Positions 3,472 to 53,558 of a DNA stretch of 64,000 bases are shown in pieces (position 1 is the stretch's first letter; each line of letters starts with the position of its first letter). The position numbers and the translations under genes were made by a program. Under the pieces are notes generated by a model. The model was not told the DNA's origin. It saw only the letters and a program-made list of their open reading frames with translations, and made no database searches. This DNA is from Candidatus Kapaibacterium sp. GTDB lineage: Bacteria > Bacteroidota > Ignavibacteria > Kapaibacteriales > UBA2268. The stretch covers positions 3,840,001 to 3,904,000 of the forward strand of contig OY762428.1 of NCBI GenBank assembly GCA_963665665.1. The letters run 5' to 3'.

Positions 3472-4758
3472 ATGAACAGATATAATGATTTAATAGATTT
3501 TGTTGATGGTGAATTAAGCCCGGAGAAAGAATCCGCGCTGATGTTTGAAGTTTCGGAGAACCCCGAGCTTCTGGCAAAATTCAAAAACCTTCTGAAAGTT
3601 GAGAAAACTTTCGCTGATAAAGCTGCAATAAGCAATACTCCACCCGTACTGACAGGTAAGGTATTTGACTCTATCGGCATTAATTCGTCAGCTGCCGGAA
3701 ATATAAGTAGCGGAATATTTGCATCAAAAATGAAAGCATTACTGGCCGGTGCAAAGTCGGGAATTATCGGGCCGGCTATATCTGCTCTGCTTACCGGAAC
3801 AATTTTTGTTTGTCTTATCAATCCCTTATGGTACGGTGATTATGAAAAGAATGTATCCGTATTCGAAAAAAATGTACCTGTTATAAGTTCATATTTAGAT
3901 GAAGATATACTAACCGAAAAAAATCAAAAAATCAATAAGCTGGCTGAAAAATTACATAACTCAGAAGGATTGATTTCCGATTTACAAAATGAAAATAACA
4001 GGCTGAATAATTTATTGGCAAATAACTCGGATGATCACTATGAAAAAGTACATAGTGAAAAAAGCCAATCAACTCCGTCAGCATTTACCAGGAATGAACT
4101 TTTGGGTTACCTTTCCTGTAATGATAATTCCAGGAAGTATTCATCGCTGAACGAAACACTTCCTGCACTTAATAATTCAGGAATTCCTACTTTATCCGTC
4201 TCTCCGACTATTAAAGCCAGAACTTCCGTTCTTCCTGATATTGATATGCTTAATTTGGGGTCTGGCATGCCGGTTCTCGTGGAATTCAGTAAAGAAGAAT
4301 CGAATTACCTGAGTAAGGCTACTATATCTCCGAGCCAAAGAATGCTTTTCAGGGATATGAATGTCAGGGTATTGTACAAATTAGCATCATATCTTGATGT
4401 TGGGGCTGAATACAGAGCTGAGAATTTCTTTTTGAAATATCATGGTTACGAGAATGACGTGCTTTATGATTACGAACAGCAACCGAATTTCCAAACTATA
4501 AGCGCAGTTGTTCGCTCGGGATTGTTTTCCTTTGGCAAAACAGATGTATTTGCTCAATATAGCCTTGGATTTAATAATGTCGGATTCGTTAACCGGCTGA
4601 TGCTGGGAGGAAATTATAAAACCAGCGGCGGATTTGGATTTATAGTTGGCCTGGAATATTCAGACATGAGGTTCACAAGGCAGAATATTGATTTTGACTC
4701 TCAGAAAATCTCACTCAACTATGGTATTCAGTTTGATCTTAGTAAGGATACGAAATAA
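3472..4758 (+). CDS. Anti-sigma factor: N-terminal anti-sigma domain, TM helix, coiled coil, C-terminal outer-membrane beta-barrel
   Basis: LIDFVDGELSPEKE N-terminus, hydrophobic helix ~aa 98-118, amphipathic beta strands ending SLNYGIQFDL; directly after the ECF sigma. Confidence 0.75.
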   Translation: MNRYNDLIDFVDGELSPEKESALMFEVSENPELLAKFKNLLKVEKTFADKAAISNTPPVLTGKVFDSIGINSSAAGNISSGIFASKMKALLAGAKSGIIGPAISALLTGTIFVCLINPLWYGDYEKNVSVFEKNVPVISSYLDEDILTEKNQKINKLAEKLHNSEGLISDLQNENNRLNNLLANNSDDHYEKVHSEKSQSTPSAFTRNELLGYLSCNDNSRKYSSLNETLPALNNSGIPTLSVSPTIKARTSVLPDIDMLNLGSGMPVLVEFSKEESNYLSKATISPSQRMLFRDMNVRVLYKLASYLDVGAEYRAENFFLKYHGYENDVLYDYEQQPNFQTISAVVRSGLFSFGKTDVFAQYSLGFNNVGFVNRLMLGGNYKTSGGFGFIVGLEYSDMRFTRQNIDFDSQKISLNYGIQFDLSKDTK

Positions 4759-7868: not shown

Positions 7869-8037
7869 ATATTTGGAAGGTATCAAAATATTACATTAAA
7901 ATGCTATTTTTCGAAATTTTGAATCTATGTAGATTTTAGTACCCAATGTTTTATTATCCAATTCAGTTTAAGCCTTCATGCCTACCCATCTTGGCGGCGG
8001 ATTCTTTTTCCGATTGAAGTTATTATAGTTGCTGGAT

Positions 8038-8421
8038 GTCATTCTGAGTGCCAGCGAAGAATCCATTCTTATTACACTATCTAACTAAAGAAGATGGATT
8101 CTTCGGTCGCTTCGCTCCGTCAGAATGACGGATGGGAATGTCCCCCGCTGGCGGGGGTGGACTTCCGGAAAAATTCCCCTCGTTGAGGGATGGCGAGCGC
8201 AGCGAGTTCCCGACACGTCGGGACAGGCTGGGGTGGGTTCTTTTTCTTAGCCTCCCTTATCCACGAGCTAAAGCACGTGGCTATTGAATTTGTCGATTAT
8301 AATGCTGGAAGGTCATTCTGAGCACCAGCGAAGAATCCATTCTTTATACACTATCTGCAAACGAAGATGGATTCTTCGGTCGCAAGCTCCGGAAGCCTGC
8401 CCCGACGTGTCGGGGAATGAC
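8038..8421. repeat. Cluster of REP-like palindromic repeats, some nested
   Basis: Two GTCATTCTGAG..GAAGAATCC / GGATTCTTCG..GAATGAC units (8038-8129, 8312-8421), CCCGACACGTCGGG palindromes, CCCCCGCTGGCGGGGG. Confidence 0.85.
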
Positions 8422-8438
8422 AACATAATACATCCTTC

Positions 8439-8900
8439 TCCGGCCCTTACCCCCCGTTCTTCCACCCCAATGAACAGGCCGCCGGCCTTAATTCCCCAAC
8501 CTGTGGTTCCAATGAACCGGATAATTTCCTTAATTCAATGCTGTTTTGAACCAGAATCCTGATGTATGGGCTAATTGCTTGGATTGCAGGGCTTTAAACT
8601 GCCATGGCAGGGGGTATTGAACTACTGTTTGGCCTTAATGTAATGAAATTTCGCCTTACTGATGTCTTATTCTGCTTCATTGATCACTTGTTCCACATTA
8701 CTGATGTCTTGTTCTGCTTCATTGCTCACTTGGTTTGCCTTACTGTTTGCTTGTTCTGCTTCATTGCTCACTTGTTCCGCATTACTGATGTCTTGTCCGG
8801 CTTCATTGCTTGCTTGTTCGGCTTCATTGCTTGCTTGTTCGGCTTCATTGCTTGCTTGTTCGGCTTCATTGCTTGCTTGTTTGGCTTCATTGCTTGCTTG
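8439..8900. repeat. Tandem 21-bp array (22 units, consensus TTCGGCTTCATTGCTTGCTTG)
   Basis: 12 clear units 8649-8900. The outer degenerate units keep the phase: CCAATGAAC at 8467/8509, CCTTAAT at 8486/8528/8633. Confidence 0.9.
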
Positions 8901-9459
8901 TTTGGCATTGAAATCCCGAAGATACAAATGAGAATAGTATATAGATAGAACTGATAATCAAATATATAGGTAAAATTACTAAATATTATACTATTTATAT
9001 TAAATATATAGTATTTATAATAATATATATAATATATCCAAGCCTTGATATAGTTCATCTAACAAAACTTTTTATATAAATCACAAAATATATTATATAT
9101 ATAATTAAATAATTGATATGATTTATTAAATTCATTTTATAAACTATTAAATATCAGTATTAACCTATTAATTAATCAGTATATCTAATTTGTTAGGACA
9201 ATTAAATATATACTTGGATAATTAATATATTTTATAAAAGAAAAAGAAGAAATTATTAGAAATAGTGATTAATGACTTGTTTAAATTATTTATTTGATTA
9301 GTTATATTATTAATATTGTAAATCTATATGATTATTTAATAATCTGATAAAAATATTTACTACAAACACTTAAATATTTACTGATTTTGAGCATATATTT
9401 AATAATCCAATTTTAATAAATAATACAATTAGTTAAATATTCCGGATTCCAACGCTACA

Positions 9460-9958
9460 CAAGCAATCATTACCACCAACCGAGACAACAATAGAATCAA
9501 ACATTGGTGCTTTGCTCCTGACCCCTCCCAAACCCTCCCCGAAGGGGCGGGCTTTGAAGAAGAATAAGGCAACAACAGAATAAAACATCAGTACTTTGCT
9601 TCCAACCAAGGCAGCAACAGAATCAAACATTGATGCAATAGCTTCAACCAAGAGTTCATTATCATTAAACATTGCTGCAAAAGGTGCAAACAAGACCTCA
9701 ATACTTCTGACCCCTCCCAAACCCTCCCCGAAGGAGAGGGCTTTGATGGAAAACAATGCGGCTTTGGCTCTGACCAAGGCATCATTATCTTCAACCAAGG
9801 CGTCAATGGAATCAACCATTGGTGCATCGGCTTCGACCCCTCCCAAACACACGCGGTGTGGAACCCTCCCCAAAGGAGAGGGCTTTGAAGTAAAACATGG
9901 CAACAACAGAATAAAACATTGATGCAATGACTTCAAACATTGGTGCATTGCTTTCGAC
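9460..9958. repeat. Degenerate 21-bp array (23 unit-lengths +16 bp, consensus CAAGGCAGCAATGACTTCAAA) with embedded hairpin modules
   Basis: Units start CAAG/CATT every 21 bp; CCCTCCCAAACCCTCCCC-AAGG-G-GGGCTTT modules at 9523, 9712 and 9838. Confidence 0.85.
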
Positions 9959-10236
9959 CCTTCCTACCTACCCCTGACACCCTCCTTCGATAGGAGGGGG
10001 AGTTAATTCTATGTTATTTAACTTCTTATCCCTTCCTCGCGGAGGAGGGGAATACAGGGGTGGTTTTCTTTCTTTGCCTCCGGGCGTTGCACCTTTATCC
10101 ACGAGATAGAGAACCTGGCTATTGAATTTATCGAAGGCAGTTGGGGGAGATTCGAAAATAAAGGGAATATCATGTAAAAAATAATAAGGTGTCAGCAAAT
10201 GTGATGGGGATTAGTATACTTTATTGAAATGCAGTT

Positions 10237-49407: not shown

Positions 49408-51045
49408 CGTCATTGCCGCCCTGTTTTACTTCAAAGCCCTCTCCTTCGGGGAGGCACGGCCCCTTGCGAGGGTTCCACACTGCGTGTGTTTGTGAGGGGT
49501 CGAAAGCAATGTACCAATGTTCGAAGATATTGCTGCACTGGCCAGAAGCAAAGAAAGAAAACCTCCCCTGTATTCCCCTCCTCCGCGAGGAGGGGATAAG
49601 AAGTTAAATATCATAGAATTAACTCCCCCTCCTTCTGAAGGAGTGGGGCGGGGGGAGGTAGGAAGGATCAGCTGCATTTCACCGATGTTCTAAGTTATTG
49701 CTGCCCTGCTTTTCTTCAAAGCGCTCTCCTTCGGGGAGGGTTTGGGAGGGGTTGGAGTCATTGATGCCTTGTTTGAAGTCATTGCTGCCTTGGTCGGAGT
49801 CATTGCACCAATGTTTTATTCTATTGATGCCTTATTCTTCTTCAAAGCCCTCTCCTTCGGGGAGGGTTTGGGAGGGGTCGGAGTTATTGCTGCCTTGGTC
49901 GACGCTATTGCACAGATGTTTGAAGTCATTGCTGCCTTGGTCGGAGTTATTGCTGCCTTGGTCGGAAGCAAAGTACCGTTGTTTGATTCTATTGTCGCCT
50001 TGTTTGAAGTTATTGATACCTTGTTTAGAGGCAAAGTACTGATGTTAGAAGTCATTTAAATCTTGGTCGGAGATATTGATTGCTTGTGTAGCGTTGAAAT
50101 CCGGAATATTTAAGTGTTTGAATTATTTACAATACTTGAATTATAAAATAAATAATAAGAATTAGTAAATATTTAAGTATTTGTAATAAATATATTTATC
50201 AGATTATTAAATAATCATATAGATTTACAATATTAATAATATAACTAATCAAATAAATAATTTATACAAGACATTAATCACTATTTCTTATAAATTCTCT
50301 TTCTTCTTTTATAAAATATATTAAGTATCCAAGGATATATTTAATTGTCCTAACAAATTAGATATACTGATTAATTAATTGGTTAATACTAATATTTAAT
50401 AGTTTATAAAATGAATTTGATAAATCATATCAATTATTTAATTATATATATAAAATATTTAGTTATACATATAAAAAGTTTTGTTAGATAAACTATATCA
50501 AGGCTTGGATATATTATATAAATTATTATAATTACTATATATTTAATACAAATAGTATAATATTTAATATTTTAGATTGAATATTTGATTATCAGTTCTG
50601 TCTATAGACTTTTCTAATCTGCACATTTGGGATTTTAATGTCAAACAAGCAAGCAGTAAGGCAAACCAAGAAAGCAATGAAGCCGGACAAGTGTGCAGTA
50701 AGGCAAACCAAGCGAGCAATGAAGCGGAACAAGATTTCAATAAGGCAAAACATCCAAGCAATGAAGCGGAACAAGACTTCAATAAGGCGAAACAAGTAAG
50801 CATTGAGGCGGAACAAGCAAGCAATGAAGCCAAATTTCACTACATTAAGGCCAAACAATGCTTCAATACCTCCGGACAAGGCAGTTTAAGGCCCTGCCAA
50901 CAAAGCAATTAGACCAAACATCATGGTTTAGATTAAAAACAGCATTGAATTAAGGAAATTATCCGGTTCATTGAAACCACAGGATGGGGAATTAAGGCCG
51001 GCGGCCTGTTCATTGGGGTGGAAGAACGGGGGGAGAGGGCCGGAG
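49408..51045. repeat. Copy 2 (inverted) of the ~1.6 kb foldback element
   Basis: Reverse complement aligns with 8438-10077; arrays 49667-50086 (20x21 bp) and 50646-51044 (19x21 bp), core 50087-50645 (559 bp). Confidence 0.9.
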
Positions 51046-51149: not shown

Positions 51150-53556
51150 CCTCATTACGAAGTTGTACTTCGCAATGCAGTTTTCTTTTGAAACTAAGCT
51201 TCATAATTCCAAAGTATAACTTTGCAGGAAATTGACCTTCCCAAGTGTAACCTGGGAAGGAGAAAAAAGAATAAAAAGATAAAATCTTGGAAAACAGCTG
51301 CTGTTTTTATAAATTAAGATAATGTTTGATTTGATACGTTTTTGATTAAAACCTTGTGAGGCAGAAATGTATAATTTTAAAGAAAAATATATAAATCCCT
51401 TTACCGATTACGGCTTTAAAAAGCTTTTCGGAGAGGAACCCAATAAAGACCTGCTACTGGATTTCCTGAATGAGCTGTTGAGGGAAGAACAGGGCGAGAT
51501 AAAAGACCTGACCTATCTGAAAAATGAAAACCTGGGCGCTGCCGAAGCAGACCGAAGGGCTATTTTCGATCTTTATTGTGAAAATGAGAAGGGTGAAAAA
51601 TTCATCGTCGAGCTGCAGAAAACCAAGCAGAACTTCTTCAAAGACAGAACGGTTTATTATTCTACATTTCCTATCAGAGACCAGGCACAGCGCGGCGACT
51701 GGAATTATGAGTTAAACCCCGTTTATACAATCGCTGTTCTGGATTTCATTTTCGACGATGACAAAAAAGAACCTGAAAAATTCCGATACAACGTGAAATT
51801 AAGCGATTTGGACAGCCACGAAGTATTCTATGATAAGTGGACATTTATATACCTTGAAATGCCAAAGTTCAACAAAAATATAGATGAGCTTGAAACCCGG
51901 TTTGACAAATGGCTGTATGTACTCAGGAATCTGAACAGGCTGGATCGTGTTCCGGATAAACTTCGTGAAAGAATATTCGAAAAACTTTTCGAAACTGCCG
52001 AGATTGCGAAATTCACTCCCCAACAGGTAATGAATTACGAGGACAGCCTGAAATACTACAGAGACCTGAAAAATTCTATTGACACCGCCCGCGATGAAGG
52101 CAAAGAAGAAGGGTATGAACAAGGTGTCGAGAAAGGAATAGAAAAAGGAAAAATTGATATAGCCAGGAAGATGATTCAAAAAGGAATGTCTGTTGAAATG
52201 ATTATTGAACTGACGGGGATGAGTGAAGGCGATATAAACAGTTTGAAATCACTGGTATGAATCCCAAAGTAAACTTTGGAAACTGATTCCGCAGCAAGCT
52301 GCGGGGTATTTTTTCCCTCCGACTTCGTCGGGATTGTTCGACTATCAAATTTCTTTCTCTTCGTTCATGAAATTTGAGTCTCACGAATAAATTTCCCCCC
52401 CACCGTACCCGATTTATCGGGGAAAGACAAATAGCAAAAATTCTCCTCATTACGAAGTTGTACTTCGCAATGCAGTTTTCTTTTGAAACTAAGCTTCATA
52501 ATTCCAAAGTATAACTTTGCAGGAAATTGACCTTCCCAAGTGTAACCTGGGAAGGAGAAAAAAGAATAAAAAGATAAAATCTTGGAAAACAGCTGCTGTT
52601 TTTTTAAATTAAGATAATATTTGATTTGATACGTTTTTGATTAAAACCTTGTGAGGCAGAAATGTATAATTTTAAAGAAAAATATATAAACCCCTTTACC
52701 GATTACGGCTTTAAAAAGCTTTTCGGAGAGGAACCAAATAAAGACCTGCTACTGGATTTCCTGAATGAGCTGTTGCGAGAAGAACAAGGCGAGATAAAAG
52801 ACCTGACCTATCTGAAAAATGAAAACCTCGGTGCTGCCGAGGCAGACAGACGGGCTATTTTCGATCTGTACTGTGAAAATGAAAAAGGTGAAAAATTCAT
52901 TGTCGAGCTGCAGAAAACCAAGCAGAACTTCTTCAAAGACAGGACGGTTTATTATTCCACATTTCCTATCAGAGACCAGGCACAGCGCGGCGACTGGGAT
53001 TATGAGCTAAACCCCGTTTATATAATCGCTGTTCTGGATTTCATTTTCGACGATGACAAAAAAGAACCTGAAAAATTCCGATACAACGTGAAATTAAGCG
53101 ATTTGGACAGCCACGAAGTATTCTATGATAAGTGGACATTTATATACCTTGAAATGCCAAAGTTCAACAAAACTATAGATGAGCTTGAAACCCGGTTTGA
53201 CAAATGGCTGTATGTACTCAGGAACCTGAACAGGCTGGATCGTGTTCCGGATAAACTTCGTGAAAGAATATTCGAGAAACTTTTCGAAACTGCCGAGATT
53301 GCGAAATTTACCCCCCAACAGGTAATGAATTACGAGGACAGCCTGAAATACTACAGAGACCTGAAAAATTCTATTGACACCGCCCGCGATGAAGGCAAAG
53401 AAGAAGGGTATGAAGAAGGCGTCGAGAAAGGAATAGAGAAAGGAATAGAAAAAGGAAAAATTGATATAGCCAGGAAGATGATTCAAAAAGGAATGTCTGT
53501 CGAGATGATTATTGAACTGACGGGGATGAGTGAAGGCGATATAAACAGTTTGAAAT
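51150..53556 (+). repeat. Tandem duplication of 217-bp leader + Rpn gene (51150-52249 and 52445-53556)
   Basis: Near-identical copies at offset 1295 bp, separated by a palindrome-rich spacer. Confidence 0.95.
51367..52260 (+). CDS. Rpn family PD-(D/E)XK nuclease / putative transposase
   Basis: PFTDYGFKKLFG, IFDLYC..FIVELQK, FIYLEMPKF, EGxEKG repeats, IARKM..IIELTG. Confidence 0.92.
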   Translation: MYNFKEKYINPFTDYGFKKLFGEEPNKDLLLDFLNELLREEQGEIKDLTYLKNENLGAAEADRRAIFDLYCENEKGEKFIVELQKTKQNFFKDRTVYYSTFPIRDQAQRGDWNYELNPVYTIAVLDFIFDDDKKEPEKFRYNVKLSDLDSHEVFYDKWTFIYLEMPKFNKNIDELETRFDKWLYVLRNLNRLDRVPDKLRERIFEKLFETAEIAKFTPQQVMNYEDSLKYYRDLKNSIDTARDEGKEEGYEQGVEKGIEKGKIDIARKMIQKGMSVEMIIELTGMSEGDINSLKSLV

Positions 53557-53558
53557 AA
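52662..53558 (+). CDS. Rpn family PD-(D/E)XK nuclease, second copy
   Basis: Same motifs; one extra GIEK repeat and a shorter C-terminus. Confidence 0.92.
   Translation: MYNFKEKYINPFTDYGFKKLFGEEPNKDLLLDFLNELLREEQGEIKDLTYLKNENLGAAEADRRAIFDLYCENEKGEKFIVELQKTKQNFFKDRTVYYSTFPIRDQAQRGDWDYELNPVYIIAVLDFIFDDDKKEPEKFRYNVKLSDLDSHEVFYDKWTFIYLEMPKFNKTIDELETRFDKWLYVLRNLNRLDRVPDKLRERIFEKLFETAEIAKFTPQQVMNYEDSLKYYRDLKNSIDTARDEGKEEGYEEGVEKGIEKGIEKGKIDIARKMIQKGMSVEMIIELTGMSEGDINSLK

Follow-up and report, generated by a model that had tools for sequence, protein, structure and literature searches.

The locus studied here raises the question of why four pairs of short motifs should lie mirrored about one axis in an AT-rich part of the window (the whole stretch of 64,000 nucleotides that was analysed). 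It was originally predicted that the symmetry reflects selection on a hairpin or cruciform of about 350 nt, or on dyad-symmetric protein sites as in res, att or telomere-resolution sites. All four pairs were found to be exact reverse complements, and the recomputed coordinate sums of pairs 1 to 4 are 18255, 18256, 18255 and 18255. The span and the two copies of the AT-rich core in which it occurs are:

8955..9300, no strand assigned: span with the four co-axial motif pairs, exact complements, sum 18255/6, axis 9127.5
8900..9460, plus strand: AT-rich core of subfamily A, copy c01, 561 nt, about 14% GC, 21-nt periodic
50086..50646, minus strand: AT-rich core copy c08 (copy 2 of the original prediction), inverted relative to c01, 89% identity, ungapped

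The 346-nt stretch of the prediction is the middle of this 561-nt core. The same four pairs are indeed present in copy 2, but this second sighting is not independent evidence, because copy 2 (50061-50733) is copy 1 (8813-9485) reverse-complemented, with 88% identity over 677 nt in a self-BLAST. The motifs had also been described as unchanged between the copies, with the sequence between them drifted at constant length, and this is the case: 29 of 346 positions differ between c01 and c08, and all of them lie outside the 66 motif columns (hypergeometric p = 0.0016).

The 5.46-Mb genome contains 16 full-length copies of the core at 82–100% identity to c01. They form a gap-free alignment of 561 columns with 225 variable sites and pairwise identities of 79–95%. 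The symmetry is not kept across these copies. Four perfect pairs exist only in two of the 16, c01 and c08, both in the window. Pair 2 is imperfect in 13 copies, its Watson-Crick pairing at four positions being retained in just 7–12 of the 16, and pairs 1–3 are specific to subfamily A and absent from the more diverged subfamilies B and C. Chance was assessed with 1000 dinucleotide-preserving shuffles of the 511-nt AT-rich region 8930-9440 (14% GC). Four or more co-axial runs of at least 7 nt arose fairly readily in such DNA (78/1000), while the observed count together with the summed length was reached in 16 of 1000 shuffles, and in 2 of 1000 when the post-hoc span of the prediction itself was used. 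The region contains 115 inverted runs of at least 7 nt as compared to 97 ± 12 in the shuffles. Under an ungapped log-odds score the predicted axis was reached in 48 of 300 shuffles with one choice of target identity and in 135 with the other; this score undervalues motifs containing G or C because A-T and G-C matches weigh equally in it. These counts would agree with the view that the four pairs are pure chance in low-complexity AT-rich DNA and carry no biological meaning. That view is nevertheless quite improbable, as the axis falls in a strongly enriched class modulo 21 and the region belongs to a repeat family that is conserved and length-locked. Chance covers the pairs alone; the repeat family is no chance feature.

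Folding of 8955-9300 gave z-scores of -0.12 as DNA, -1.24 as RNA of the plus strand and -1.18 as RNA of the minus strand (100 composition-matched shuffles per strand and type), and the predicted minimum-energy folds do not contain the co-axial helices, the terminal one excepted. Over the 16 copies a compensatory double change was seen once in 528 cells. Pairing in the four helices was retained in 92.8% of cells against 93.1% with shuffled partners, the covariation score was 0.026 against 0.031 for shuffles (394 of 500 shuffles being at least as high as the observed value), and the substitutions in the motif pairs of the alignment were mostly pair-breaking. Along the whole axis 52% of positions match against a background of 38%, and the best ungapped segment on it is 47 nt long with 72% matches. 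With arms that are not complementary over most of their length, ordinary folding energy, no covariation and loss of pairs in other copies, selection on a hairpin or cruciform is unsupported. Sites of the res, att or telomere-resolution type do share with this region dyad-symmetric short motifs in AT-rich DNA, but they are single, short and located beside a recombinase or resolvase gene, whereas here there are many equivalent axes, no perfect palindrome and no conserved neighbour. No such context was found at the 16 copies, which have no common flanking gene: a comparison of their flanking ORFs, which differ from copy to copy, revealed no recombinase or resolvase gene common to them. A site-specific recombination or telomere-resolution site was rejected also because at least 13 axes fall in one class modulo 21 in place of one short single-dyad core. 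The selected hairpin, cruciform or single-dyad recombination site is thus largely refuted and must be regarded as most improbable, even though the four exact co-axial pairs are present and identical in both window copies and conservation over the 16 copies is slightly higher in the motif columns than elsewhere (0.953 against 0.913, p = 0.003).

The core has a strong internal rhythm. Its seven best direct autocorrelation lags are 21, 63, 42, 84, 105, 126 and 168, with scores of 0.46–0.52 against a mean of 0.376 (sd 0.041). The single axis of the original prediction did not hold, as 13 of the 16 best inverted axes share the coordinate-sum class 6 modulo 21 (sums 18255, 18276, 18297, 18318, 18339, 18360, 18381, 18402, 18423, 18444, 18486 and 18528 among others). 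Three axes, 9222, 9159 and 9180, score above the predicted one, and about 9180 the two edges of the core form an inverted repeat:

8893..8919, no strand assigned: left half of the boundary inverted repeat, partner 9441-9467, 21 of 27 positions matching, sum 18360, axis 9180
9441..9467, no strand assigned: right half, 21 of 27 positions matching 8893-8919

A 55-nt inverted segment, 8953-9007 with 9353-9407 (75%), has the same axis. The sum 18360 is itself in the class 6 modulo 21, and the predicted axis is shifted from it by 5 × 21 in the sum. The unit-averaged 21-mer is AATTATATAATTTATATAATT, and what is conserved in it is a palindromic AATTAATT-like core, which lies across the unit junction and recurs every 21 nt. 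Since a quasi-palindromic unit repeats every 21 nt, short inverted matches pile up on many axes. This generates a ladder of axes 10.5 nt apart, and the four pairs are matches that chanced to fall on one rung. The four mirrored pairs are real, yet they are a side effect of the 21-nt rhythm. It should be noted here that co-axial short inverted matches are to be expected in periodic AT-rich DNA and are not to be taken for hairpins. The observation in the original prediction is thus partly confirmed and its interpretation partly supported: the region is constrained and carries dyad-symmetric sites, but of a different kind, namely a AATTAATT-like core every 21 nt and two boxes.

A coding core was rejected under any reassignment of stop codons, as TAA, TAG and TGA occur in all six frames with at least 10 stops per frame, and the variable sites of the core have no period-3 pattern (p = 0.33). 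A search of Rfam 15 gave three matches with E values of 0.08–0.41, far below the gathering score and none of them inside the core. A scan for promoters and terminators found 14 sigma-70 promoter-like sites against 8.5 ± 3 in shuffles, a number that is uninformative in AT-rich DNA. Among the fragmentary contigs of four sequencing runs, where no listed piece spans the stretch, none of the 12 listed indels falls inside 8925-9440. Homology among the 16 copies ends 0.2–1.4 kb to the left and 0.5–1.0 kb to the right. The copies have no neighbouring gene in common, the orientation of the flanking genes is inconsistent, and no pattern of copy orientation against chromosomal position was seen by inspection. 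A 17th, diverged A-type core (C1:2032415-2034426) is interrupted by an IS3-family element of about 1.47 kb (orfA/orfB) inserted between core positions 302 and 306, and the same element is found between island and gene in two of the B cassettes described below and near c12 and c13.

The genome was surveyed for islands with at most 20% GC over 300 nt. Of 118 such islands 30 are 21-periodic, and 14 of these are not A copies. Besides the 16 A copies, 13 diverged islands were assigned to two groups, B and C. The six copies of subfamily B are 86–94% identical, with no gap over 718–897 nt. The seven copies of subfamily C are only 61–75% identical and still align mostly with 0–2 gaps (best pairwise alignments of 424–705 nt); two C pairs at 73–75% identity align over 705 and 658 nt without a gap, and the exceptions are two alignments of i3764828 with 4 and 8 gaps. 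The dispersed units are thus 16 A, 6 B and 7 C islands together with one IS3-split copy. Two boxes stand out in these islands:

9044..9063, plus strand: Box 1, CTTGATATAGTTCATCTAAC, its 3' end being motif 4L and its 5' end abutted by motif 3L
9178..9197, plus strand: Box 2, AGTATATCT-N6-TTAGG, containing motif 4R

In the form common to A, B and C the 20-bp Box 1 reads CTTGATATAGTTYATCTAAC and is present in 29 islands. When the islands were stacked without gaps on Box 1, Box 2 (AGTATATCT-N6-TTAG) was found at +134 in all 16 A and all 7 C islands; in subfamily B it is arranged differently. Pair 4 of the original prediction overlaps Box 1 and Box 2, which are conserved separately and not as a pair, because the G changes of 4R are unmatched in 4L.

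Constraint is visible in the length and in the helical phase. None of 15 copies differs in the net length of the core, in spite of 817 mismatches, and the same holds for the tail described below (0 of 47 copies, 1001 mismatches). In three neighbouring small repeats, copies with a net length change number 13/30, 8/10 and 10/67. The gaps which BLAST places in the core are mutually cancelling pairs within variable patches, which could stem from indels that compensate one another or, as artefacts, from patchy gene conversion. Length invariance could also result in part from register-preserving gene conversion among periodic copies and not from selection. The variable sites of the core are phased with a period of 21 (p = 2.6e-5) and of 7 (p = 3e-4). 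Conservation profiles per phase, taken modulo 21 with the register set by Box 1, correlate between subfamilies (A and C, rho 0.75, p = 8e-5; A and B, 0.51, p = 0.018; B and C, 0.47, p = 0.03), and subfamily B taken by itself (six copies) gives no significant result in the phase test (p = 0.37). The conserved features are the total length, the 21-nt phase, equivalent to two helical turns, Box 1, and Box 2 exactly 134 nt away, and not a hairpin.

The core is bordered on both sides by arrays of 21-nt units, with the following layout in the two copies of the window:

8440..8650, minus strand: conserved tail beyond the left arm, 211 nt
8660..8911, minus strand: left arm, 12 in-register 21-nt units in c01, running outward from the core
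9441..9950, plus strand: right arm, related 21/42-nt units in inverted orientation with GC-rich hairpin inserts between them
50647..51045, plus strand: left arm and tail of c08 (self-BLAST 50644-51045 against 8839-8438, 83%)
49440..50085, minus strand: right arm of c08 (self-BLAST 49542-49921 against 9515-10083)

The left arm comprises 5 to 34 units over the 16 copies, all in register, and TRF assigns it a period of 21/42. Its tail has 47 near-full-length copies in the genome with a mean identity of 89% and no net length change in any of them. Tail copies are about three times as many as copies of the AT core. In the right arm a repeat search found the families D2, D4 and D5, with spacings of 42, 126 and 189, and TRF an array at 9566-9652. 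GC-rich hairpin inserts of the CCCTCCCC-GAAG-GGGCGGG type are located at 9515-9557, 9704-9746 and 9862-9919, spaced by 189 and 142–158 nt, and their in-frame translation recurs as FGEGLGGV; GC-rich hairpins of this arm have spacings that are multiples of 21. Small hairpin-bearing repeats resembling MITE or REP elements (8022-8110, 8296-8383 and 9975-10075) lie nested within its outer ends, with roughly 87–146 BLAST hits genome-wide.

The arms could be read as present or former protein-coding genes of heptad repeats that converge on the core, in which case the core would be no more than the intergenic or terminator sequence shared by their 3' ends. The left-arm frame running inward (heptad LFRLIAC) stays open across the array in 14 copies out of 16, the exceptions being c04, with an internal stop, and c12, with one near the end. 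After IEIPKxxMRIVYR the frame is closed by the same conserved stop, inside the core, in 11 of the 16; this position is read through in c08, c10, c12 and c13, and c16 stops one codon earlier. Read inward, the right arm also has similar hydrophobic heptads (VIAALVG) ending at the core edge. An open inward frame is however expected in any case, because the consensus codons are far from stops, and variability is lowest at its third codon positions (0.55) and highest at its first (0.84). Its start codon is unconserved, with ATG in 3 copies, and the frame in the right arm has several stops in c12–c15. Read outward, both arms carry an N-[DE]-x-[DE]-Q heptad, and the outward frame of the left arm (heptad EAEQASN) has 11 stops in 1791 codons, T changes that create a stop being no rarer than the other T changes. 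The arm translations matched no Pfam or NCBIfam family, no heptad is common to the arrays that precede homologous genes in other genomes, and a coding origin of the arms leaves the conservation inside the core unexplained. Coding arms are therefore a minority reading, which we consider improbable.

In subfamily B the island travels with a gene. The B cassette is about 2.1 kb long, exists in six copies and consists of about ten 21-nt units, an AT-rich 21-periodic island of about 700 nt and a 304-aa gene. The copies are located outside the window:

C1:4923900-4925580: B cassette
C1:164000-166900, 860200-861400, 3453500-3455000, 4627000-4630000 and 4943200-4944800: five further B cassettes, approximate limits

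Each B island is directly upstream of the 304-aa gene, with IS3 between the two in two copies. The six gene copies are near-identical and have 55–60% GC as compared to about 38% for the genome. A family search with the protein gave no Pfam family and one PHROG match at E = 0.44. Five metagenomic homologues at 32–37% identity and two paralogues in the same genome at 39–40% were found. The AlphaFold2 model (pLDDT 86) predicts long helical hairpins followed by a C-terminal FN3 domain, and fold searches with this model matched the FN3 domain alone, so that no DNA-binding or Rep-like fold is recognised in the predicted structure. The homologues in other genomes come from records titled Candidatus Kapaibacterium and others, and in five of six assessable loci a 21-periodic stretch is present within the 400 nt before the start codon (one locus shows no array, and one further locus was masked):

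L054:2400-2640, L056:3700-3905 and L060:1-225: 21-nt repeat arrays beside homologues
L057 and L059: 21-periodic stretch upstream of position 4001

The first three arrays comprise about ten 21-nt direct repeats and end roughly 100–170 nt before the start codon, and the unit sequence is private to each locus. Of the two paralogues, one has 14 GC-rich 21-mers upstream. Upstream of paralogue 2 (1351783-1352685), at C1:1352686-1354000, right-arm and left-arm arrays meet head to head without an intervening AT core, and the tail, small repeats and finally the gene come after them; this arrangement resembles an 'empty' version of the A element. These arrangements suggest a conserved array-gene module with private repeats. 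As homologues elsewhere carry arrays, the arms would belong to this array-plus-gene module, to which the AT-rich island was added in the present genome.

From the anatomy of the islands we infer that the element is a periodic repeat acting as a helically phased protein-binding scaffold or control region, and we give this reading, with its protein binding, its phasing on one face of the helix and its regulatory role, a probability of roughly 55%. The element is lineage-specific, multi-copy and non-coding, and its AT-rich core of fixed length (561 nt) consists of about 25 degenerate 21-nt units, each with a conserved palindromic AATTAATT-like centre. The core is placed between two 21-nt-unit arrays of variable length which face each other as inverted repeats around the axis at about 9180. 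The two boxes, and the dyad sites that recur along one face of the helix, could be bound by one or more dimeric DNA-binding proteins, and the island could then control the flanking arrays and also, in the B cassettes, the gene downstream. Gap-free copies, the 21-nt period, the phase profile shared by the subfamilies, the length lock, the boxes and the arrays beside homologues of the B gene speak for the scaffold. On the other side, the B gene, the one gene tied to related islands, has a modelled product with no recognised DNA-binding fold; the A copies have no common neighbour gene to regulate, and no copy was found outside the own genome. Gene conversion, moreover, possibly lies in part behind the length lock, and there is the non-significant phase test in B alone. 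If the scaffold reading holds, the islands would be a rare case in bacteria of selection for helical phase along more than 500 bp, recurring across a chromosome, and questions of chromatin-like organisation or centromere-like sites in bacteria would become directly testable in one organism.

A different account of the dispersal is that the islands, with or without their arms, are non-autonomous mobile elements moved in trans by a recombinase, with Box 1 as a recognition or nick site and the constant length reflecting a copied, defined unit. At least 29 dispersed copies lie in unrelated intergenic contexts and in both orientations, C-type pairs have sharp homology boundaries, the B type travels with its gene as a unit in six copies, and IS3 copies are inserted in or near several islands. 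The nick of rolling-circle origins of the pC194 type is made within CTTGATA, and Box 1 starts with this heptamer. It is printed in a RepH-dependent rolling-circle origin (Appendix B, PMC7072734). The likeness to origins of the pC194 or phiX174 type is, however, a weak match of a single shared 7-mer; such origins have a cognate HUH Rep, whereas here no transposase or HUH Rep was detected, nor any Rep-like family in the B gene, the only associated gene. No terminal inverted repeats or target-site duplications were seen by inspection at the B and C ends, and the ends of the A element are blurred by nested small repeats. Mobility alone does not account for a phase-specific conservation common to subfamilies that are 60–75% identical. 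Unit mobility is therefore a live rival, though a rather unlikely one on present evidence, and it is compatible with the scaffold reading. Equally tentative is a bolder form of the scaffold, in which the islands would constitute a new class of chromosomal nucleoprotein elements with about 25 dyad sites at exact two-turn spacing and two anchor boxes, at about 30 chromosomal places, with selection against any indel. Such elements might assemble into a defined protein-DNA superstructure comparable to a positioned chromatin particle or to the centromere of a plasmid, which might tune the 21-mer arrays on either side or be tuned by them.

Among known systems, plasmid type II centromeres (parC of R1, and the centromere of pSK41 with its 20-bp repeats) and the heptad operators of the omega protein of pSM19035 are built of phased, dyad-like tandem repeats of 7, 11 or 20 bp. 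These arrays can flank a promoter, and small dimeric proteins bind them cooperatively to form one extended complex. The islands resemble them in having helically phased tandem short repeats with dyad character, to which binding is putative here. They are different in being 500–650 bp long with 86% AT and in about 30 chromosomal copies, and in having no parM/parR-like or RHH gene adjoining. With iteron-type replication origins, in which iterons are combined with an AT-rich region for unwinding, they share 21-nt direct repeats adjoining a long AT-rich stretch and, in the B and paralogue loci, arrays just upstream of a gene. The many chromosomal copies and the inverted arms of 5–34 units are unlike such origins, and so is the adjacent gene, which, where present, is modelled as helical hairpins with FN3 and has no recognised Rep-like fold. 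Direct repeats of about 20 bp in register, as iterons and centromeres have, are present in the left arm (5–34 21-mers); an adjoining gene for a Rep- or ParR-like binding protein was found neither at the A copies nor in the B gene. REP/BIME, MITE and Correia-type elements are likewise non-coding, multi-copy, intergenic and lineage-specific and are often nested with small repeats, but they tolerate indels, are usually shorter than 300 bp and have one hairpin or terminal inverted repeats as their defining feature. The present element is 1.5–3 kb long with a periodic core of fixed length, and no terminal inverted repeat or target-site duplication was found.

The repeat family appears to be private to this genome. 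In 40 related genomes a BLAST search with the core gave only short AT-rich matches, the best being 70% over 177 nt at a locus (L031) that is without the island architecture. The exact core pattern had no match in public genome collections and none in metagenome contig collections, and the arm 20-mer pattern gave 5 single chance matches in unrelated genomes. Box 1 at up to 2 mismatches occurs 29 times in its own genome and 7 times in 100 other genomes of the family, in which the reversed control pattern has 12 matches, and nothing similar to the islands was found in these 100 related genomes by the Box 1 search. As the repeat family was not found outside its own genome, the scaffold reading has no deep comparative support. 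A full-text literature search found no published description of such islands. As far as that search reaches, the combination of private 21-nt arrays with an orphan gene family of helical and FN3 proteins in several genomes is also undescribed.

Lying in opposite orientations, the two A copies (8.9 and 50.1 kb) could bring about an inversion of the segment between them. Over 8000-42000 of the window the GC skew changes sign twice: it is positive as far as about 8 kb, turns negative between about 9 and 39 kb and is positive once more beyond about 42 kb, but the second switch is not at copy c08. Beside c08 there are two tandem genes (51367-52260 and 52662-53558) that are 96% identical at the DNA level and which, judged by eye, we take to resemble Rpn/YhgA-type PD-(D/E)XK nucleases ('putative transposases').
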